From the NCBI GenBank assembly GCA_041675085.1, contig JBAYUN010000005.1, positions 1 to 56,060 on the forward strand: DNA of 56,060 bases. The letters run 5' to 3'. Source of the stretch: Minisyncoccota bacterium (GTDB lineage Bacteria > Patescibacteriota > Minisyncoccia > Phycocordibacterales > UBA9973). The notes under the pieces were generated by a model. It did not search any database and had not been told where the DNA came from. It saw only the letters and a program-made list of their open reading frames with translations. Shown in pieces: positions 1 through 56,060 of this stretch. The position numbers were made by a program, and so were the translations under genes. Positions within the stretch are counted from its first letter, which is position 1; every line of letters begins with the position of its first letter.

Positions 1-552
<552 letters not shown>

Positions 553-855
553 AAAAGTTAAGAACGAAACAAAATAAAAAACAGCATTTTACAAAATCAT
601 TTTTTATGTGTTCGTTAGAATTTGATCTTTGCTCTAAAAATTATTTAAAAACAAATATCAGAGACTTGCTTCCCGACTGAAAAATCGGGGTTCTCTTTTT
701 TATCAAGCCACAGCGGAACGCTATGACTTGATACACCTATTCACTTGTCAAAGTAAAACGCTCTATCCATAAAGAATAAAGACGTAAAGAGAGTATATAT
801 CATAGATAAATCAAAGTCAACCCCATTTAATATAATCAAAATATATAACTATAAA

Positions 856-2247: not shown

Positions 2248-3651
2248 ATGAGCACTCAAACAAAAACAATTAGTGATTTTTTGAATCGAACACAAGAGGT
2301 TGTAGAGCAAATTCTAGGCAGTGATAATCTAAAAACAATAATAGAAATAAGCCAAAAAGCACACGAAGACCCCTCTTTATTGACTGAAGATTTAAATAAG
2401 ATATGGAGAACCCAAACAGAAAGATTACTCTTTATTGTATTGAGCAGAGAAGAAATAAAACAAATCATAAAAGACTATAATTCTCTTCGTCATGCAAATT
2501 ATTGGTATTTAGGTATGAATAATGATTTTACTAAAACTATAATTCATAGATTTAAAGATCTTTGCTTTAGTAAAACTCAAAAAGACCTAATTGAAATTAA
2601 AAAAGAATTTTATTCTACAAACTACAGTATCAAATCTTCTATATTTATTTCTATTTTAGATTCAATCATTGCTGATAAAATTAAAATTAATAAAAACGAA
2701 GAAACTCTCGATTCTTTGATGGAGTATAGATTGATCATGAACAATGTAATGGATTCTTATGCAATAAAAACAATAGATACTTGCATTGCAGAAAAAGTTG
2801 AAACTTCAACAGACATTCTTAAATTAAAAAAATTTAGCCAAGAACTTCATGATATTCAGGCTAAGCTCAGTAGCTCTCTTGAATCAGGGTATTACAATAA
2901 TGATAAGATTATTAGAATAATGAGAAATAGGATTGATACACTTTCTTCAATTATAATCAAAGACATGAATTATTCTTCAATTGAAGAAGTTTTAGAAAAT
3001 GCATCAAACCTTACAAAGAATCAACTGGTATCTGCAGAATCTATTGCACACGAAATCAAAAGAATTTTAGAAGAAAATCTAAAAAATGAAAGCCTTCAAG
3101 TAGTTTTTAAAACATTTCAAAGTATAAACAAAAAGCCTGCTAATGTATGGCAATATACAGACGAATCTGAAGATTATTTAAAAGAGCTTATGGCTTCGAA
3201 ACAATTTGATAGCACAGAAGGTTATAGTCTTGAGCAAATGATAGTAATTTTTAAGTTTTTGAGTAAAAATAAAATCTATAATAAAGATTTTGAGTCAAAA
3301 TTTAAAAAAGAATATCGTAAGGAAGAAAATACAAATATTCACAGATACACCACTATCTACTTTTTAAGAAAAAAATATCATTGTGAAGACAAAGAACTTA
3401 ATGATGTATATAAAACACTTATAAGCACAGAGACAAGTTTTGATGTTTTAAACAAAATCATACAAATCAGTGGAATCTTTGGGTATTTAGATTATTCTAT
3501 TCAACGACTTTGCGAAAAAAGAGTCTTGGAATTAATTGATCAAAAATCACAACAAGACTTTGAAGAAATTTTTGCAAAATGTATAGAAAAAAAATATTTT
3601 TACGGTAATCAGAATTTCTTTATAGAAAAAGCTAAGAGTTTTGGTTTGTAA
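2248..3651 (+). CDS. hypothetical protein (Lys/Glu/Ile-rich, helical)
   Basis: Long ORF; the track start at 2185 is TTG. First ATG with a plausible N-terminus is 2248 (MSTQTK). No motif recognised. A convergent hairpin terminator follows. Confidence 0.5.
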   Translation: MSTQTKTISDFLNRTQEVVEQILGSDNLKTIIEISQKAHEDPSLLTEDLNKIWRTQTERLLFIVLSREEIKQIIKDYNSLRHANYWYLGMNNDFTKTIIHRFKDLCFSKTQKDLIEIKKEFYSTNYSIKSSIFISILDSIIADKIKINKNEETLDSLMEYRLIMNNVMDSYAIKTIDTCIAEKVETSTDILKLKKFSQELHDIQAKLSSSLESGYYNNDKIIRIMRNRIDTLSSIIIKDMNYSSIEEVLENASNLTKNQLVSAESIAHEIKRILEENLKNESLQVVFKTFQSINKKPANVWQYTDESEDYLKELMASKQFDSTEGYSLEQMIVIFKFLSKNKIYNKDFESKFKKEYRKEENTNIHRYTTIYFLRKKYHCEDKELNDVYKTLISTETSFDVLNKIIQISGIFGYLDYSIQRLCEKRVLELIDQKSQQDFEEIFAKCIEKKYFYGNQNFFIEKAKSFGL

Positions 3652-4789: not shown

Positions 4790-4830
4790 CTTAAATAATT
4801 CTATCTACATGATTTTAAAGTTTACAGACG

Positions 4831-4903
4831 TTGGTCTGTGACTAGTGAGCTGTTACGCACTCTTTAAATGAACGCCTGCTTCCAAGGCGGCATGCTAGAC
4901 CAA
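4831..4903 (-). ncRNA. unclassified GC-rich three-stem structured element (candidate cis-regulatory RNA or small RNA)
   Basis: P1 is TTGGTCT/AGACCAA (4897-4903 with 4831-4837). It encloses hairpins at 4868-4893 (CGCCU/AGGCG plus AUG/CAU) and 4844-4861 (AGUG/CACU). The element is much more GC-rich than other intergenic DNA in the window. Confidence 0.3.
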
Positions 4904-4956
4904 TAAAGCCAAAGAACTATTTAAATCAAAGTACAGGAAAAATAAAATTAAGTCAA

Positions 4957-5658
4957 TTACTTCCCTAAAAAGTATTTTCGTTCTTTTTCGCTAAATTTTT
5001 CTATCGCGTAGCGGAGCATGGTGCGAGGCATTTTACTTTTATTTTTCTCTAGGAATACTTTTAATCTTTTTTCATCTCTTTTCCCTGCTTCTCTCAACAT
5101 CCAACCGAGACTCTTATGAATAAGGTCGTGCTTATGATTTAAAAAATATTCTCCAAAATAAAAAATCAAATCAAAATCATTATTCTTGATAACAGCAAAA
5201 GTCGATATAATAGCAACGCGTTCACTCCAAAGTTTACCCGACTTTGAAAGTTTTATTAAAATATTTCTGTCTTCTTTGTCTTTCAAATACGCACCTAAAA
5301 TATTAGAAGCAGAAACGTCTACCAAGTCCCAGTTATTAACAGATTCTAAATTCTTGAGATAAAATTTTACAAACTGCTCCCGCTCTTTTTCTGTCTTCGC
5401 TTTTTTATATTTTGTATTTAAAATTATTAGAGTTATGAGTCTGATTTCATGGACCTTGTTTTGAATTAAATTTTCTAAATCTTTTAAATCAATATCAATA
5501 TATTTATTCGCAATTTTTCTTGAAGTCGGTACAGTCAATCCATAAAAAATATCCCCGTAACCATACTCACCTTTACCTGTCTTAAAAAACCGAGTCAAAA
5601 AAGCCCCTTTGTCTTTATTCCGCAAACTAGTGACTTCTTTTACGATAAGTTTATCCAT
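4957..5658 (-). CDS. DNA alkylation repair protein (AlkD/AlkC-like HEAT-repeat family)
   Basis: Blocks FFKTGKGEYGYGD, NNWDLVD and SLGWMLREAGK. The track ORF begins at a TTG inside the -10 box; the ATG at 5658 (MDKLIV) lies 6 nt after TGTATAAT. Confidence 0.7.
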   Translation of the reverse strand: MDKLIVKEVTSLRNKDKGAFLTRFFKTGKGEYGYGDIFYGLTVPTSRKIANKYIDIDLKDLENLIQNKVHEIRLITLIILNTKYKKAKTEKEREQFVKFYLKNLESVNNWDLVDVSASNILGAYLKDKEDRNILIKLSKSGKLWSERVAIISTFAVIKNNDFDLIFYFGEYFLNHKHDLIHKSLGWMLREAGKRDEKRLKVFLEKNKSKMPRTMLRYAIEKFSEKERKYFLGK

Positions 5659-19824: not shown

Positions 19825-22050
19825 TTAAATATTATTTAAAAGCATTTCATTTATCTTGGCACGAGTTTTTTCATACACCCAACCAGTCCCCTTTGTGGTC
19901 CCAAGATAAGATAAAACTTGATCTTGATATTTTTCTTGAAAACGAACTACAGCATTATGAGTCAAAGGTCCAAAATATCCAGTAATTCTTTTCTCTGGAT
20001 ATATATCTCCACCTTGATTTGCTAGAAATTCTTGCAGGCGACGCACATCTGATATACGACTACCTTGTTTCATATTTATTAAAAATAAAGGTATAGAGTT
20101 TTCAGACTTTGTTTCTGAAATTATATTATTTGGAGTAGGTATTTCTTTTACAGTATTAGTATTTAGGACAATATTATTTACAGTATTATTTTTTGCATTT
20201 AAATTATTACTTATCATTTGCAGAAAAGCTACAGATACAGATCCTGGAGAAGAGATACTGAAAGGTCCTATTTGCAAGTTATTGGATACATTCCCTGCTA
20301 AATCAGTCAGGTAAAAAACACAAGAATAAGTTTTGTTATTTTGTAGGTTGTATAGATTCACCGATACACCAGTATTCACTGTAGTAGAAGACCCATGACC
20401 ACAACTCTCTATAGTATATTCTCCTGTTTCGCTGGCAGTAAAAGAATAAGTGGCAGAAGTAACATTAACTAGATTGTTTTGGACTTGAGCAGATTGTACC
20501 AAAACTGGAGCTGTTGTATCTATCACAATATTTTTAAGAGAAGCCAATCCTGATACAGGAGAGAAATCTACCATAAGATTAGTAGCTTGGTCTCTAATCA
20601 CTCCAGAAATAGTTGCACTCAAATCTTCACTATTATCTCCTGCTTGCACAGTATAGTTACAAGTCCCGGTAGTACTATTTGTAATAGCAAATGTACAAGT
20701 CCTATCTACATCCCCTGTCTCCAAAGTCACCGTAACGTTCCCAGTACTAGTCACAGCTTCTGAGAAAGTAACATCAATATCTATTACTTCACCTTCTTTA
20801 TAAGAATTATTATCTACAGAAGAAGACACGCTAGATACGACAGGAGGAGTAAAATCGCCAGTAGTAAAATTCCAAGTAGTAATACCAGAAATCCCTGCAT
20901 AATATACATCTGAAATATTCTTAAAAGCAGTATTACCTATCAATATATAATAAGAAGTACTTTCTTCTAGATCATCTGTCGGATTTACTACTATAGTATT
21001 CGTACCACTACCTGAAACATTAGGGCCAGTAACATCTATCGCCTCAACAGTAGAATCATCTATAGTTTTCTTAATAGTAATGTTTCCAGAATCTACAAAT
21101 ACAGAAGAACTAAAAACTAAAGTTAGATTTGTATCCACAGTTCTATTTGTCGCATTGTCTGTTGGGGTTAAAGTTGAAACAACTGGAGCGTTTAGAGTAG
21201 TGATAGAGATATTTTTTGAAGTAACAGAAGGCATATTCCCCGAAGATCCAAACTCAACAACATAACCAGGCAGAGTAAAGCCACTACAAGGCAAATCGTT
21301 CCATTTACCTGAACTTCCAGCTAAAAACTGTCCGCAGTCTTCATTGCCAGAATTGTTAGGTTCACCTGTTCCCCAATTGGCATAAGTTTGCACTGTACCA
21401 TTTGATAGTCCTTGCCAGAAATATGTACCTGTTTCTGGTCCTGTCGCCCAGATCCATCGGTCTTCTTGTGCAGAATCACTAGCTCCCATCCATCCTGCAT
21501 TCAAAAGCCTAGCAGCAACGAAATCATTTTCATTTTGTGAAGTAATAGTTGTCAGATATCCAGTAGCGCCATATCTAGTCAAAAGAGCAGCTTGATCTCG
21601 TGCCTGTTCCCAAGTTGTAAGACTAGAAATATATTCATACAAATGCCCATTGTCTGCAAAAAATACTTCACCTGGATTAACTAGTGAGACTTCAAGAGTA
21701 TCGCTCCCTGCACTACCTCGAGTATAAGTCAGAGTCGCTAAAGCATTATTCACATTCGCTAAAGTTCCAGTAAAATACAGAGTGCTTCCCGTAGAAGGCC
21801 CGGTAAAAGTTAGTCCCGTAGTTGTCGACATAGCCAAAGTCCCACTTGAGACAAATAATTTTACAGGCACATTAGACCCGTCCCCGTCAGTCACTTGTAA
21901 ATCCGTAATAGGCATAGCTACACCTACACCACCAGTAAAACTATTACTACCAGCGAGATTCCAACCAGCTGCATTCGCAGAATTAGAACTACTTAAAATT
22001 AGTGAAAAAATAAAAGTTAAAGATAATGCAAATTTAAAAAATGTTTTCAT
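19825..22050 (-). CDS. secreted surface protein: C-type lectin-like domain, Ig-like modules and a C-terminal peptidoglycan-binding domain
   Basis: Signal peptide. CTLD block WMGASD...RWIWATGPE...ANWGTGEPNNSGNEDCGQF...GKWNDLPC. C-terminus VRRLQEFLANQG...GYFGPLTHNAVVRFQEKY. Confidence 0.7.
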   Translation of the reverse strand: MKTFFKFALSLTFIFSLILSSSNSANAAGWNLAGSNSFTGGVGVAMPITDLQVTDGDGSNVPVKLFVSSGTLAMSTTTGLTFTGPSTGSTLYFTGTLANVNNALATLTYTRGSAGSDTLEVSLVNPGEVFFADNGHLYEYISSLTTWEQARDQAALLTRYGATGYLTTITSQNENDFVAARLLNAGWMGASDSAQEDRWIWATGPETGTYFWQGLSNGTVQTYANWGTGEPNNSGNEDCGQFLAGSSGKWNDLPCSGFTLPGYVVEFGSSGNMPSVTSKNISITTLNAPVVSTLTPTDNATNRTVDTNLTLVFSSSVFVDSGNITIKKTIDDSTVEAIDVTGPNVSGSGTNTIVVNPTDDLEESTSYYILIGNTAFKNISDVYYAGISGITTWNFTTGDFTPPVVSSVSSSVDNNSYKEGEVIDIDVTFSEAVTSTGNVTVTLETGDVDRTCTFAITNSTTGTCNYTVQAGDNSEDLSATISGVIRDQATNLMVDFSPVSGLASLKNIVIDTTAPVLVQSAQVQNNLVNVTSATYSFTASETGEYTIESCGHGSSTTVNTGVSVNLYNLQNNKTYSCVFYLTDLAGNVSNNLQIGPFSISSPGSVSVAFLQMISNNLNAKNNTVNNIVLNTNTVKEIPTPNNIISETKSENSIPLFLINMKQGSRISDVRRLQEFLANQGGDIYPEKRITGYFGPLTHNAVVRFQEKYQDQVLSYLGTTKGTGWVYEKTRAKINEMLLNNI

Positions 22051-22164
22051 TTATAAAAATAATTATAACAAAATCTATAGCCTGCGCACAAGGAATTTTG
22101 CTAATTTGATAAAAAAGTAATTTTGTACTATTGTTTAAAAGTATTTATATTTTAAATACAACCT

Positions 22165-22425
22165 TGCTAGATCGTCTAATGGTGGGAATAAAAATGAAAC
22201 TACTTTCATTTTTATCTGGTTCTTTAGAAATTACATATATTTTATATATAAAGCTGGGAGATCGTCTAATGGTAGGACAACAGTTTCTGGAACTGTTTAT
22301 CTAGGTTCGAATCCTAGTCTCCCAGCTTTGTATAGAAAATTTGTAATAAGGGCTCTCTGAGATCCTAAATTTTGGTTCGCCTGCCCGAAATGAATTTCAT
22401 TCAGGCGGGAATCCAAGTCTAGCAA
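22165..22425 (+). pseudogene. split or disrupted tRNA-Gln-like gene whose halves flank the intact tRNA-Gln
   Basis: 5' part 22165-22189 is TGCTAGA TC GTC TAATGGTGG GAA. 3' part 22350-22425 is GGGCT CTCTGAG ATCCT AAAT TTTGG TTCG[30 nt]AAT CCAAG TCTAGCA A. The acceptor strands pair perfectly over 7 bp. Confidence 0.5.
22255..22325 (+). tRNA. tRNA-Gln (anticodon CUG)
   Basis: TGGGAGA TC GTC TAATGGTAG GAC A ACAGT TTCTGGA ACTGT TTAT CTAGG TTCGAAT CCTAG TCTCCCA G. Has U1-A72 and G73 as in bacterial tRNA-Gln; no encoded CCA. Confidence 0.88.
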
Positions 22426-22430
22426 CATGA

Positions 22431-22470
22431 AAATAAAAAACACTGAAACCCATATTTATAGATTTCAGTG
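22431..22470 (-). terminator. intrinsic terminator after CDS 22479..22871
   Basis: CACTGAAA/TTTCAGTG stem; T-run on the minus strand. Confidence 0.6.
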
Positions 22471-22478
22471 TTAAGTAC

Positions 22479-22871
22479 TTAATTAAACAAAACAGATCGT
22501 TTTAATGGCTTAAATAAGCTTACATTAAAAGAAAAGCCACCATCCCACCAAAAATTACCAAAATTCATTCTCTCTTCTAGAGAGACTATTTCATTAAACC
22601 TAACAAGATAAACATCACAAAAAATATCGTAAAGATTATCGTGTATTTTTTTTAATGATTCGAAGTCACAATTCTTAGGATCTACACACAAGACTTTATT
22701 TATTAAATATCTTATCTCTAAATAAATATCAAAATCAAAATACTTACTTATACTTAAAACATATTCATTAAGTCCAATTTTAAAATCGGGCTTTTTGCCA
22801 AATTTTAATTCATACATATTTTTATATTTTAAAAGATATGTATTTGTATCAATTTCTATCTGATTTTTCAT
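22479..22871 (-). CDS. hypothetical small protein (paralog of the next gene)
   Basis: 130 aa; C-terminal FWWDGGFS resembles GWDGPPNS in the neighbour. Confidence 0.45.
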   Translation of the reverse strand: MKNQIEIDTNTYLLKYKNMYELKFGKKPDFKIGLNEYVLSISKYFDFDIYLEIRYLINKVLCVDPKNCDFESLKKIHDNLYDIFCDVYLVRFNEIVSLEERMNFGNFWWDGGFSFNVSLFKPLKRSVLFN

Positions 22872-22887
22872 TTTTTATTTTTTAAAA

Positions 22888-23238
22888 TTATGAAAAAAGA
22901 ATTGAATTAGGTGGGCCGTCCCAACCAGAAAAGTCATAACTATAACCTTCTGGTATTATTTGTTTCATTAGAGAGACCTTGATAGCTGGCATACTTTCCC
23001 TCTTGTTTTCTTCTACTTCTATAAGACTGTTTAAATTAGTCTTTATTTGAAGAAAACTATCATCAGTCTTGTCTTTAGTATAAAAAAGCATGTCTTTAAT
23101 AAAATAATAATCATAATGGCGTTCAATAACTCTAGTATAATTATCCAAATTTAGACTAAGCTCTATACCAACCGAGCGGAAATATGCTTTTGCATAAAAA
23201 TTAAAAAAGTCATAAGTTGAATTTATAACAATTGCCAT
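22888..23238 (-). CDS. hypothetical small protein (paralog of the previous gene)
   Basis: 116 aa, of similar length, composition and C-terminal W-D-G motif. Confidence 0.45.
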   Translation of the reverse strand: MAIVINSTYDFFNFYAKAYFRSVGIELSLNLDNYTRVIERHYDYYFIKDMLFYTKDKTDDSFLQIKTNLNSLIEVEENKRESMPAIKVSLMKQIIPEGYSYDFSGWDGPPNSILFS

Positions 23239-23399
23239 GTTTATATATTTTAATGTGTATCAAAAAACTAAATTTCTAGTGTATTAAACCATATTTAGCA
23301 TAGAAAAACAAATCTTAAAAATAACCCAAATATATTTACAAAATCATGCTTTAATGTTATTCTGTCTTTGGATTTATTTGTAAATTTTTAAAGATTTAA

Positions 23400-24398
23400 C
23401 TAATCACTATTCACTAAAAATTTAAAACTCGCTATCATGTTTCCAAATTCATTTTCTATTTTAGTTTTATCAAATTCTTTTATATTTTGTTCTGGGCTAT
23501 AGTTACCAATATTCGTAGAATGGATTGTATATTCTAAAGCATAACAGTCTCCGTCGAGTAATCCTCTATAACTCGTAGTCTCATAATAATTCCCTGCTCC
23601 CGCATCTGTAGAGAAGAATTTTGTAAATGGATAACCGCTAATATTTGTAGTACCTTTTAATACTTCTCCATTCAAAGGAGTAGCAGTCGTACAAGTAGAT
23701 ATTTCTTTTATATCAGTCGAAGCTCCAATACTCAAAGATGCGCTAGAGAAATTTGTATTGGGCATATAGGCTTTTGGTATGTAGATTTTAGCTAAAGTAA
23801 AACCTTTGGCTTTTGCATTTATCCTCCATTCATTTGAAAGTGTATCTTCATTCGGTTCATAGATTTTAAAAAAAGAATTGTAATTCATTATAAATTTATC
23901 ATTTTTTTCTTGGAAGGCTGTAGTACAATCTTCATCTTTTACAAAGACAACATTAGTATCATAAGAAATACTAGATAAATCTTTAAACAGAACTTTATCT
24001 CCTTCGTTTTTCACATCTCCATATCCTCTCACAAAAGTATCTCCAACTTTTTTAAATATCACCTGCATATCTGAGTCCATACCTTCAGAATTAAAAGCAT
24101 AATTACCAAATAATATTCCATCTAAGTAAGTCCCCTTGAAAGATCCAGAAGAACTATCTTTTTCATAATTATTAAAAGCGAGCCTGCCGGAGATATTCCC
24201 CTTATCTTCTTCAAGTAGAGTTATTGCATAAATATCTTTACCTAGAGTTGCGACATAGCATCCCAAAATAGAGTCCTCTACTACGACAGGAGTCGGGATA
24301 GGTCCTTCTATAACTTTGGGAGAATTAAAATAATAAATAAAAAAGCCGATCAGTATAACGATAAATAACCCTATAAAAATTCTAAAATTGTTTTGCAT
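23400..24398 (-). CDS. membrane-anchored hypothetical protein
   Basis: The ATG at 24398 (MQNNFRIFIGLFIVILIGFFIYYF) gives a TM anchor and removes the overlap with msrB. Confidence 0.5.
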   Translation of the reverse strand: MQNNFRIFIGLFIVILIGFFIYYFNSPKVIEGPIPTPVVVEDSILGCYVATLGKDIYAITLLEEDKGNISGRLAFNNYEKDSSSGSFKGTYLDGILFGNYAFNSEGMDSDMQVIFKKVGDTFVRGYGDVKNEGDKVLFKDLSSISYDTNVVFVKDEDCTTAFQEKNDKFIMNYNSFFKIYEPNEDTLSNEWRINAKAKGFTLAKIYIPKAYMPNTNFSSASLSIGASTDIKEISTCTTATPLNGEVLKGTTNISGYPFTKFFSTDAGAGNYYETTSYRGLLDGDCYALEYTIHSTNIGNYSPEQNIKEFDKTKIENEFGNMIASFKFLVNSD

Positions 24399-24450
24399 AT
24401 ATAATAATGACGAATGAACTGTTGTAATATTACAACAGAAAGAAAATAAA

Positions 24451-24837
24451 TTATTTCTTCTCCAGGTCAAGACAAATAGAATTCAAGCAATAATGTTTAC
24501 CAGTTACAGACTGAGCATCATCAAAAATATGACCCAAGTGTGACTTACATTTTGAACAAACAATTTCAGTACGATTCATTTCATAACTATCGTCAGGTAC
24601 ATATTCAATACTGCCAGGTATGGCTTCATTAAAACTTGGCCAGCCTGCAAGCCCAGGAACATCAGAGTGATATTTTGTATCAGAGGAAAATAGAGGATTC
24701 CCGCAAACTTTACAGTTATAGGTCCCTGTACTTTTCTCATGCAAATAAGAACCCGTAAAAGGAGCTTCAGTTCCCTTTTCTCTCAAAACTCGATACTCTT
24801 CTTCACTTAGTTTATTTTTTATTTCTTCTTCGTTCAT
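24451..24837 (-). CDS. msrB: peptide-methionine (R)-S-oxide reductase
   Basis: Two CxxC pairs (CKVCGNPLF, CSKCKSHLGHIF) and a SelR-type C-terminus. Confidence 0.9.
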   Translation of the reverse strand: MNEEEIKNKLSEEEYRVLREKGTEAPFTGSYLHEKSTGTYNCKVCGNPLFSSDTKYHSDVPGLAGWPSFNEAIPGSIEYVPDDSYEMNRTEIVCSKCKSHLGHIFDDAQSVTGKHYCLNSICLDLEKK

Positions 24838-50667: not shown

Positions 50668-50688
50668 AAAGTTATAAATACAAAAATT

Positions 50689-50730
50689 AAAAAGAGGCGA
50701 AATTCATTAAATGAATTTCGCCTCTTTTTA
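50689..50730. terminator. bidirectional hairpin terminator
   Basis: AGAGGCGAAATTCATT/AATGAATTTCGCCTCT stem with flanking A/T runs. Confidence 0.8.
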
Positions 50731-51531
50731 ATAAAAAACAAAAAATAGCAACAAAAATATACCTAAAATTATTCTATAATAACCAAAAACAATAAAAGAA
50801 TTTTTCTGAATATAAGAGATAAGCCATTTGATAACAAAAAAAGCTACAACAAAAGATACAACGAAACCAACAAATAACGCCGTCCAATCGTCACGAGAAA
50901 AATCAAAACCTGTTTTATAAAGATCATAAATAGTCGCAGAGAGCATCGTGGGTATAGCTAAAAGAAAAGAAAATTCTGCTACCAAAGACCTAGAAATTCC
51001 CATCATTCTACCAGAGATAATCACAGAAAGAGATCTAGATACTCCCGGCACAACAGCCAAGGCTTGAGTCGTACCCATTATCAATAATTCTCTCATGCTT
51101 AGTGATTCTATGTTTTGTTTGTTACTTTCTACTATTTGCTTTTCTTGTTTTTTCTCAAAAAATATAATAAATACGCCACCTAAAATCAGAGTTATGGCCA
51201 TGAGCATAGTATTCCCTAATAAATGGTCTTTGATTAATTGATATAAAACAAAACCAATAATACCGGTAGGCAAAAAAGCAATTATAATATTTCTCCAGAA
51301 TACAGGTATGCCATATTTTGTATTAGAGAAATTAAAAATCTTTTTTTGATACAGAAATACAACTGCTAGTATCGCTCCTAGCTGGATAGTAATCTCGAAA
51401 CTTTTAACAAAATCCGTAGCCGGAATATTTAAAAACAATCGAGTGATATCTAAATGCGCAGTCGAAGATATCGGCAAGAATTCTGTAATCCCTTCAATGA
51501 TACCAAAAATTGTAGCTTGTATGATATTCAT
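50728..51531 (-). CDS. uppP: undecaprenyl-diphosphatase
   Basis: GIIEGITEFLPISSTAHL and PGVSRS blocks with eight TM helices. Confidence 0.9.
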   Translation of the reverse strand: MNIIQATIFGIIEGITEFLPISSTAHLDITRLFLNIPATDFVKSFEITIQLGAILAVVFLYQKKIFNFSNTKYGIPVFWRNIIIAFLPTGIIGFVLYQLIKDHLLGNTMLMAITLILGGVFIIFFEKKQEKQIVESNKQNIESLSMRELLIMGTTQALAVVPGVSRSLSVIISGRMMGISRSLVAEFSFLLAIPTMLSATIYDLYKTGFDFSRDDWTALFVGFVVSFVVAFFVIKWLISYIQKNSFIVFGYYRIILGIFLLLFFVFY

Positions 51532-54909: not shown

Positions 54910-55021
<112 letters not shown>

Positions 55022-55171
55022 TGAAAACTCGATTAGAAGAATTTTTACAAAATTTTTTAAAACTTCGCCCTCGGAGTCATAAAGACAGGGGACCCACGTT
55101 TTTTAAAATTTTATAAAAATTCTTTTTAATTTAAAGTCTTGCGACTAATATATAACAAATATATTTTGTGG

Positions 55172-56060
55172 TTTACAAATTTCTTAACAGGAATCGAAAC
55201 ATTAGTACTTCTCAGCTAATACATTACTGTATTTACACTTAAAGCCTATCAACCTGATCATCTCTCAGGGTTCTAATAACGATTCCTAATCTTGAAGCTG
55301 GCTTCCCTCTTAGATGCTTTCAGAGGTTATCCATTCCCGACATAGCTACCGAGCAGTCCAGTTGGCACTAGAGCTCGTACACCAGAGGTCAGTTCACCCC
55401 GGTCCTCTCGTACTAGGGGCAAATCTTCTCAAGAATCAACGAGTGCAGTAGATAGGAGACCAACCTGTCTCACGCAAAATGTTTTATATCAAACTCTCAT
55501 CTACAAGAGCAGAACCTTTATTACTAAAGGGATCGGACTGTGACTTTAACTTACAAAATAAGTTATCTAACATTCAGTCTCTACGGGCATCTCTTAAAGA
55601 GAATTCCCTCGGCGTTATCCTTTGTTTTCACAAATAGGATTTCTCCGATATAAGTTAGCTTCTCGTATTGTATTACTACAATACGCCGCCGTGATGTGTA
55701 TTTTTCAACACATGGTTGTTTTCAGTTTTATATGAGCACTTACGTCTCATATATTTTCTTCGCTCGGACATTATAAAAATAAATTTTTATATGCTCCTCG
55801 CTTGAAAATATAACAGTTCTAATTCATATTCGAATTTGTCTTCCTCGCGGGATTCAGACTGTGAAAAACGCAAAACGCATATCATGCAACTTGTAACAAA
55901 AAGTTATAAGTTTTGATTTATACGCTATACGACCTTCACGGTCTGAACCCAGCTCGCGTACCTTTTTAATTGGCGAACAGCCAAACGCTTGGCAGCTTCT
56001 CCACCGCCGCGCTAAGGTGAGCCGACATCGAGGTGCCGAACTCCGCCGTCGATATGAACT
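55172..56060 (-). rRNA. rrl: 23S rRNA, 3' portion (partial, continues past the right edge), interrupted by an intron
   Basis: The reverse complement contains GGTTCAGACCGT...CGTGAGACAGGTTGGTCTCCTATC, the sarcin-ricin region CTAGTACGAGAGGACCGG and the 3' end AGTACTAATG. Confidence 0.9.
55475..55937 (-). ncRNA. group-I-like intron in 23S rRNA domain V (no ORF)
   Basis: 463 nt split the conserved ...GACCGU | CGUGAGACAG... The 5' exon ends in U and the insert ends in G. R/S-like core GUAGAGACUGAA ... CACAGUCCG gives P7 GACUG/CAGUC. Several GUAA-capped hairpins. Confidence 0.6.

Follow-up and report, generated by a model that had tools for sequence, protein, structure and literature searches.

A single-copy tRNA gene is essential, and an insertion into it should therefore not be tolerated. 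Mitochondrial insertions of endonuclease open reading frames (ORFs), for example in Allomyces atp6, bring along a copy of part of the gene that they enter, and the original that they displace persists as a pseudogene fragment. In phage T4, the free-standing homing endonuclease genes of the seg/mob type include SegB in the tRNA cluster (PMC2330249). Within bacteria of the candidate phyla radiation (CPR), essential rRNA genes hold inserts with LAGLIDADG or GIY-YIG genes, inserts without an ORF, and short hairpin-like inserts (PMC11270868). Here we describe a 56,060-nt stretch of DNA from a landfill metagenome (contig JBAYUN010000005.1, assigned to a Minisyncoccota bacterium and called the window below) in which the resident tRNA-Gln(CUG) gene of a Paceibacteria-like CPR bacterium is split by an insert that carries a complete tRNA-Gln(CUG). 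The window copy is a fossil, yet it led to a recurrent pattern of which our literature searches turned up no description: we came upon no account of tRNA-in-tRNA nesting in bacteria, or of cassettes that combine a GIY-YIG gene with a replacement tRNA.

A resident tRNA-Gln gene is split by an insert carrying a complete tRNA-Gln

The features of the locus, with 'outer' denoting the split resident gene and 'inner' the complete gene inside it, are as follows.

22106-22134 (+): sigma-70-type promoter-like site, TTGATA-N17-TATTGT, 5' of the outer 5' piece (motif match)
22165-22189 (+): 5' relic of the resident tRNA-Gln(CUG), with the acceptor 5' strand and D arm (alignment with intact genes)
22188-22215 (+): left-end AT hairpin of the cassette, with a perfect 12-bp stem, 22188-22199/22204-22215 (repeat search)
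22216-22254 (+): cassette leader, with a YYGGTTCT..AGAAATT motif and the 5' strand of a leader-trailer helix (22239-22254) (alignment, consensus fold)
22255-22326 (+): inner canonical tRNA-Gln(CUG), with U1-A72, G2-C71, G3-C70 and G73 (ARAGORN, Rfam)
22327-22349 (+): cassette trailer, which supplies the 3' strand of the helix formed with the leader; the cassette ends on the right at 22349 (consensus fold)
22350-22379 (+): first part of the 3' relic, with the CUG anticodon arm, variable region, T-stem 5' strand and start of the T loop (ARAGORN call on the joined sequence)
22380-22409 (+): GC-ended hairpin of 30 nt inside the relic T loop, a strain-specific indel (missing in the X3 and X4 contigs)
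22410-22425 (+): second part of the 3' relic, with the remainder of the T loop, the T-stem 3' strand, the acceptor 3' strand TCTAGCA and discriminator A (call on the joined sequence)

A single tRNA-Gln(CUG) was detected here, at 22255-22326, by both ARAGORN and Rfam (63.8 bits against a threshold of 29), in agreement with the initial annotation, which had been made from the sequence alone and had called this gene canonical. Its score lies above the Rfam gathering threshold and it folds into a cloverleaf with an energy of -20.3 kcal/mol, as expected of a functional bacterial tRNA. Scanning species-representative genomes with the inner 5' half identified this type as the canonical bacterial tRNA-Gln, present in Acidobacteriota, Gammaproteobacteria, Saccharibacteria and Paceibacterota. 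The nearest match, with 70/72 identity, lies at a syntenic locus in the contig L075. No difference between the window and the related strains X3 and X4 is listed within the inner tRNA, part of the X3 differences not being displayed. We infer that the inner tRNA is the working gene at the locus today.

The insert of ~160 bp, at about 22190-22349, splits the resident gene between the D arm and the anticodon stem. As noted in the initial annotation, the outer acceptor strands TGCTAGA/TCTAGCA pair over all 7 bp, and our count of matches between the 5' relic (22165-22189) and the inner gene was the same, 20/25 nt. Relatives were sought through a neighboring lectin-domain protein, which led to the metagenome contig L002; two other loci with such a neighbor (P0004 and P0015) have no adjoining tRNA and were uninformative. 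L002 is ~77% identical to the window in coding DNA and ~97% identical in the intergenic DNA 5' of the tRNA. There, the same promoter and upstream DNA lead into an uninterrupted tRNA-Gln(CUG), TGCTAGATCGTCTAATGGTAGGACGTCGCTCTCTGAAAGCGAAGATTTTGGTTCGAATCCAAGTCTAGCA, which scores 64.4 bits, contains no insert, and carries the outer acceptor stem and T arm of the window. The 5' relic is identical to this intact gene at 19/20 positions over its first 20 nt and at 22/23 over nt 1-23, and its homology to intact genes stops at about nt 23. From the T stem onward, the 3' relic equals L002 without a difference. Furthermore, a contig from a wastewater run, X8, links window position 22187 to 22409 through the exact interior of the L002 gene and represents the same intact allele.

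Because L002 and X8 keep the undisrupted allele at the orthologous locus, the comparison of sequences identifies the outer gene as the resident gene of the locus and not a paralogue. The initial annotation had suggested that a paralogous tRNA-Gln was disrupted by insertion of a tRNA cassette; the disruption by insertion is borne out, and the paralogy is not. Its view that the outer gene evolved as a folding tRNA also holds, and a chance look-alike is rejected by the intact orthologue. The synteny comparison it had proposed thus recovered the undisrupted state. More broadly, the tRNA-Gln loci of the window, L002, L075 and L040 (a locus in a Paceibacterota metagenome-assembled genome, MAG) have neighbors in common by tblastx. 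At this one syntenic locus the two tRNA types occur as alternatives, the outer type in L002 and the inner type in L075 and L099. Alleles with and without an insert are likewise found at the same locus: L002 and X8 are intact while the window, X3 and X4 are nested, and L099 is intact while L075 and L040 are interrupted.

The promoter-like site at 22106-22134 is the only nearby match on the plus strand, and the same TTGATA-N17-TATTGT is found 5' of tRNA-Gln in L002, L099, L075, L080 and L076. Judged from this arrangement, the resident promoter-like site probably drives the entire unit. The initial annotation had placed a promoter-like AT stretch inside the insert; we rejected a promoter of the insert's own, as no plus-strand match lies there.

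The nested layout might instead be a chimeric assembly of two strains with different tRNA-Gln alleles, and contigs of the source sample in Logan do break within the inner tRNA. However, freshwater strains ~97% identical to the window (X3, X4, X5) are available from independent samples, and single contigs of X3 (2253 nt) and X4 (11143 nt) cover the whole nested structure. Homologous nested loci also occur in independent MAGs. Because the X3 and X4 contigs span the layout, the nested structure is not an assembly artefact, and a chimera is close to inconceivable.

The outer gene is probably a decaying pseudogene

In their genomic place, the outer pieces give no tRNA covariance-model match even at E<=10. 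When 22165-22189, 22350-22379 and 22410-22425 are joined in silico, the resulting 70-71 nt are called as tRNA-Gln(CUG) by ARAGORN, but no call is made while the 30-nt insert of the T loop is retained. As a functional tRNA, the outer gene falls short: it is not contiguous, 190 nt have to be removed in silico before it is called, and its stems are mismatched. The joined sequence is identical to L002 at 60/70 positions. Its cloverleaf is weak, at -11.7 kcal/mol compared to -17.4 kcal/mol for the L002 orthologue, and its anticodon and D stems are mismatched, at C x U and G x A, respectively. The freshwater strains differ from the window at 22179 and 22368, both of which fall within the outer pieces.

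The hairpin at 22380-22409 is present in the landfill strain and missing from the freshwater strains X3 and X4 despite their nested layout; a loose end in X5 is consistent with this. It occurs as a single copy within the window (<=3 mismatches), which does not support a repeated miniature palindromic element. Elsewhere in the window, at 50686-50732, lies a 22-bp terminator-like hairpin whose core, GGCGAAATTCATT..AATGAATTTCGCC, partially resembles the core of the T-loop insert, CGAAATGAATTTCATTC; on this likeness it is a possible source of the 30-nt insert.

Because of the stem mismatches, the strain-level indel in the T loop, and the lack of a splicing motif or intron family at the locus, we interpret the outer gene as a pseudogene in decay that gathers small hairpin insertions. 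The initial annotation had offered a second option, a nested, intron-like or split tRNA. In such a reading the outer gene would still function: the inner tRNA and the hairpins would be cut out, and the outer halves would be joined or act as a two-piece tRNA. Several features are in keeping with this. The segment 22165-22426 folds as a nested structure at -92.3 kcal/mol (z = -8.3), the leader-trailer helix draws the outer halves together, the acceptor pairing is perfect, and the CUG anticodon loop is intact. At two related loci, L094 and L172, the outer segments have several inserts but no mutation, and the rRNAs of CPR bacteria carry many insertions (PMC11270868). Still, the search for a bulge-helix-bulge motif at the junctions, which the initial annotation had recommended, found none in the mini-precursor fold or between the junction regions, where the best duplex has 4 bp and -3.6 kcal/mol. 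Intron_gpI has no match in 22000-22600 at E<=10, no other intron or ribozyme family is found, and the 160-nt insert does not lie in the anticodon loop. Neither a tRNA-splicing endonuclease pathway nor the matching ligase is known in Bacteria. The outer gene of L040 has lost its anticodon to a GC hairpin and is no longer called by ARAGORN, and that of a further locus, L042, is nearly erased. A functional outer gene would, moreover, be redundant beside the intact inner gene. Two RNA-like runs were listed, X14 and X20; just 15-18% of the sampled words occurred in them, and we took these for words common to tRNAs in general.

A functional split or intron-like outer tRNA is therefore unlikely, and we give very little credence to a still-working outer gene in any form. 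In its most far-reaching version, both tRNAs are made after excision of the inner tRNA and of the AT and GC hairpins, with the outer halves ligated or base-paired as a two-piece tRNA. A whole tRNA would then serve as a tRNA 'intron', the first such case in bacteria; we regard this as scarcely plausible.

The insert is a discrete cassette

Sequence comparison indicates that the insert is a discrete unit that is found elsewhere, in L040, L042 and an X8 contig, which strengthens the disruption by a tRNA cassette that the initial annotation had listed as its first option. L040 has the same architecture at the same tRNA position. Its 5' relic ends with TCTAATGGTGGAAAT (in the window, TCTAATGGTGGGAAT) and is followed by the AT hairpin, CCGGTTCT..AGAAATT, a leader ending with AAAGC, an intact tRNA-Gln(CUG), a trailer of the form TTTG...AATAGG, and the 3' relic. 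L042 contains the same cassette with nearly erased relics, and the X8 contig resembles the window (~91%) over 22177-22349 only. The window and L040 have the cassette ends and junction-specific changes in common, GGTGGRAAT on the left and AATARGG on the right.

Two structures mark the cassette. The perfect 12-bp AT hairpin at 22188-22215, already seen in the initial annotation, is conserved in L040 and L042 with compensatory changes; it opens with ATG and stands in the slot that is held by a GIY-YIG ORF in relatives. The leader-trailer helix has 14 bp in the consensus fold, extends the inner acceptor stem, and likewise shows compensatory changes. A direct repeat of 78% identity, 22138-22187/22228-22277, consists mostly of the common 5' part of the tRNA and AT-rich sequence, and the cassette leader aligns with the L040 and L042 leaders rather than as an own-promoter repeat.

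We considered whether the AT hairpin is a remnant of the start of a GIY-YIG gene. The ATG placement fits, and L040 has an 11-nt segment, TGAAAAGTAAA, in common with the L075 ORF; these sequences are too short, and we treat the idea as suggestive without claiming it. The left cassette junction had no match in a viral scan. No further Rfam families were found in or around the insert at E<=10, or at nine related loci at E<=0.1.

Nuclease genes occupy the same slot at other tRNA-Gln loci

Metagenomes were scanned with the outer 5' piece, and 120 loci were fetched by tRNA pattern. TGCTAGA-type tRNA-Gln genes proved common in CPR-like contigs, and many of these loci have a 5' relic upstream of an intact tRNA-Gln. 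A GIY-YIG gene adjoins tRNA-Gln at 7/120 loci, six of them in CPR MAGs and one in a MAG labeled 'bacterium' only; none of the fetched loci labeled with a non-CPR phylum has one. The initial annotation had left out both this wider cassette pattern and the link to nuclease genes.

In L075, L080 and L115, an ORF of ~80 aa with a GIY-YIG match (Pfam E of 1e-14 to 1e-16) lies between the 5' relic and an intact tRNA-Gln, and in L014 this place is taken by a LAGLIDADG ORF. The relics of L115 and L040 share an 18-nt GC hairpin, identical in sequence and site, and the L115 tRNA is almost identical to the inner tRNA of L040. Nesting is complete in L142, L094 and L172, where an outer tRNA-Gln encloses both a GIY-YIG gene and an inner tRNA-Gln, and L112 is nested but has no ORF; once joined, the outer genes of all four are called as tRNA-Gln.

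Searching for homologues of the L075 GIY-YIG protein returned 47 proteins with at least 42% identity, six of which were looked up. A tRNA-Gln lies 0-4 nt downstream of the nuclease gene, or overlaps it, in 6/6. A recognizable 5' relic precedes the gene in five of the six; in L172 the relic is a few nt long and the remainder of the outer gene lies downstream. These six loci have differing neighborhoods, both anticodons, and several acceptor types. Altogether, a nuclease ORF stands in the cassette slot in L075, L080, L115, L142, L094, L014, L163, L166, L167, L170, L171 and L172. The break points fall at nt 15-29 of tRNA-Gln in the window, L040, L075, L080, L115, L014, L011, L142 and L150, and outside this range in L172 (nt 7/8) and L094 (about nt 65).

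The pattern extends to phages, in contigs taken from IMG/VR. L150 (2377-3141) has a fragment of tRNA-Gln nt 1-29, a 208-aa GIY-YIG-like ORF with a weak Pfam match, and a different tRNA-Gln(UUG); L151 has the same fragment and the start of the same ORF up to its contig end. In L156 (4540-4613), the flanks of L150 and L151 surround an intact tRNA without an ORF. The L150 ORF is Seg-like.

A number of structural details accompany these loci. A GC-rich hairpin, CCCTCGGCCGTAGCC..loop..GGCTACGGGCGAGG, recurs at one D-stem point (GATCGTC|CTAATGG) of tRNA-Gln relics in many unrelated CPR contigs, for example in L075 (5643-5681) and, upstream or downstream of the GIY-YIG ORF, in L166, L167, L171 and L172. 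Among the homologues looked up, a relic hairpin of this type is present in L166, L167, L170 and L171, and in L172 it lies in the outer part 3' of the inner tRNA, where two D-stem-type GC hairpins stand in tandem and a variant occupies the T loop. This hairpin could be a mini-element with a fixed target site, or else a scar left by repair where a nuclease cut. In L142 (oriented 4817-5262), an inverted repeat, CTTGCCCCGC..GCGGGGTGAA, brackets the whole GIY-YIG and tRNA insert in the D loop, and the same pair forms an 'empty' hairpin at the same D-loop site in L080 (oriented 3402-3442). In L167, L170, L171 and L172, the stop codon of the GIY-YIG ORF is the TAA of the conserved D-loop GTCTAATGG of the downstream tRNA-Gln, so the nuclease and tRNA genes overlap by ~15 nt.

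Other loci hold GC-rich, strongly structured non-coding inserts of 100-140 nt between a tRNA-Gln relic (nt 1-18) and an intact tRNA-Gln: L134 (oriented 3179-3357), L015 (2381-2524) and L016 (110-239). In L015 and L016 the insert end is complementary to the relic D-arm sequence, and neither insert has an Rfam match. Finally, the 1886-nt metagenome contig L018 packs thirteen tRNA genes into 1.9 kb in what looks like a phage-type array, including two adjacent tRNA-Gln(CUG) genes, one with the TGCTAGA acceptor.

Proposed origin of the nested locus

We consider it likely that the resident tRNA-Gln was split by a discrete replacement-tRNA cassette related to the nuclease-linked family, and that the window holds a late, ORF-less copy. 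The nuclease-bearing inserts of the relatives point, by analogy, to a selfish element that carries a spare tRNA, and the window copy is probably the ORF-less survivor of such a cassette. The insert would then belong to, or descend from, a family of cassettes that is common at CPR tRNA-Gln genes and also seen in a phage, in which a predicted GIY-YIG (sometimes LAGLIDADG) nuclease gene sits between the 5' relic and the replacement tRNA-Gln. To spread, the nuclease would break a tRNA-Gln gene, and repair would copy in the cassette-bearing template. An essential single-copy tRNA gene could be broken harmlessly in this way because the cassette brings a replacement tRNA. Transcription of the inner tRNA would start at the old promoter of the locus and read through the 5' relic, and the cell's ordinary tRNA-processing enzymes would release the tRNA. 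Once the cassette is fixed, the nuclease gene would be lost, with selection keeping the replacement tRNA only, and the window copy is probably at that late stage. The junction changes common to the window and L040 suggest that the cassette travels with short relic arms, while the outermost acceptor bases would remain those of the recipient.

Could the same locus have arisen without a nuclease? A differing tRNA-Gln allele of a relative could have been patched in by illegitimate or short-homology recombination, or a local duplication could have been followed by deletions, with the nuclease genes at other loci being unrelated neighbors. The window has no nuclease gene, the outer type (L002) and the inner type (L075, L099) alternate at the same syntenic locus, and the common segments AGATCGTCTAATGG and GGTTCGAATCC could act as short homology. 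A plain tandem duplication of the promoter and the 5' part of the tRNA is in fact found in L023. However, the same cassette ends and junction changes recur in the window and L040, which independent accidents would not produce. Most break points also fall in one region of the tRNA across many unrelated loci, and all of the GIY-YIG homologues looked up (6/6) occupy precisely this slot. We therefore grant a nuclease-free origin a modest chance of being correct.

Several observations weigh against the nuclease-linked cassette that we favor. A nuclease ORF is missing from the window cassette, and three GIY-YIG proteins and one LAGLIDADG protein, used as tblastn queries, found nothing in the 56-kb window (E>0.7), so that the proposed nuclease link of this copy is drawn from analogy and position. 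The inner tRNA retains the D-arm sequence of the broken gene and so has no obvious protection from a nuclease that targets the D arm. At ~80 aa, the GIY-YIG proteins lack a DNA-binding domain of their own, and in the survey of insertions in CPR rRNA genes the GIY-YIG genes were considered unlikely to spread by homing (PMC11270868). The AT hairpin and GGTTCT motif are conserved across three genomes and fall outside the proposed explanation. Lastly, the outer gene of the freshwater strains keeps an intact anticodon loop and a near-complete cloverleaf; this fits a recent event, yet it is also compatible with constraint.

Genomic surroundings of the locus

The window has a G+C content of ~33%, and the best matches of its proteins are to Patescibacteria/Paceibacterota MAGs. 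Between the tRNA locus and msrB lies a segment of ~2 kb with 27% GC (22431-24470), whose three ORFs (130, 116 and 356 aa) have no Pfam match. This segment is missing in L002, where msrB stands directly 3' of the tRNA and msrA is absent as well, and synteny with the strains X2, X3, X4 and X6 breaks at 22431-22443.

This absence invites another explanation, in which the outer pieces are attachment-site remnants of an integrase-borne island that has been partly excised from tRNA-Gln. Genes for tRNA are classic integration sites, and L002 lacks the 2 kb that adjoin the outer gene on its 3' side (22431-24450), with the synteny break of the strains at the same place. In line with the initial annotation, which had noted no integrase nearby, the neighboring ORFs contain no integrase or recombinase domain. 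The 18-nt 3' end of the tRNA occurs once in the window (<=3 mismatches), with no second copy; the duplicated upstream part is the 5' part and not the 3' part; and the insert is merely 160 bp long. An island of this kind is very improbable.

At the edges of the window lie parts of rRNA genes: the 5' part of 16S at 1-553 (-), and 5S with the 3' part of 23S at 54912-56060 (-). The 16S gene is thus unlinked from 23S-5S, ~54 kb away on the minus strand, with ordinary genes and five tRNA genes between. The 3' part of 23S, 55181-56060 (-), takes 880 nt for 429 model positions and includes a group-I-intron-like insert at 55514-55703 (Intron_gpI, 45.5 bits against a threshold of 50, E = 5.6e-10), which is typical of CPR rRNA genes.

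Significance and comparison with known systems

These loci suggest a way round the rule that an essential tRNA gene cannot be interrupted, namely that the insert brings a complete substitute. If GIY-YIG nucleases do drive the process, the tRNA-Gln of CPR bacteria and of some phages would be replaced repeatedly by a selfish cassette, which would explain the mixed acceptor-stem types among close relatives. The 80-aa 'GIY-YIG nuclease family' genes, a large and so far unexplained group, would also gain a target and a function. For annotation, the tRNA relics, hairpin inserts and short ORFs beside tRNA-Gln would form one unit, and the CPR habit of insertion would extend from rRNA genes to tRNA genes. 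The replacement may also matter for charging: tRNA positions 3-70 and 73 are known glutamine identity positions, and here C3-G70 becomes G3-C70 and A73 becomes G73.

Of the systems with which the locus can be compared, the seg/mob genes of T4 resemble it in having a GIY-YIG-type gene beside tRNA genes, in their presence or absence between related genomes, and in the co-inheritance of flanking tRNA DNA, a picture matched by the phage pair L150/L151 versus L156. In contrast to seg/mob, the target tRNA gene itself is broken here and a whole replacement tRNA is carried; in addition, the predicted CPR nucleases are single-domain proteins of ~80 aa, and the window copy is without a nuclease gene. 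Disrupted tRNAs of archaea offer another likeness: these include the split tRNAs of Nanoarchaeum and, in Caldiarchaeum, a tRNA-Thr 5' fragment followed by a mobile element and the tRNA (PMC3293823). They have in common with our loci a 5' fragment placed 5' of a full tRNA of the same isotype, inserted DNA in between, and heterogeneity at the population level. The archaeal halves, however, are joined by the splicing endonuclease at a bulge-helix-bulge, whereas here the motif is lacking and we take the broken gene to be dead.

Integrative elements with tRNA genes as their targets copy the 3' part to form attachment sites and thereby also leave partial copies beside an intact tRNA; 3'-end tRNA repeats are indeed seen at some of the non-CPR loci (L048, L143). 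Unlike these elements, our locus has no integrase, a tiny insert, a break in the D arm, a 5' part left behind, and a whole tRNA carried in. The insertions in CPR rRNA genes come from the same group of organisms, in a survey in which the word tRNA has no occurrence (PMC11270868). There, the RNA loses its insert or its fragmentation is tolerated; here, the tRNA is replaced and not repaired. The mitochondrial insertions of the Allomyces atp6 type follow the same logic as the nested tRNA-Gln, in that an essential gene is destroyed, a substitute is supplied, and the old piece adjoins it. In our case the target is a tRNA, the substitute is a complete new gene rather than a fused 3' end, and the host is a bacterium.

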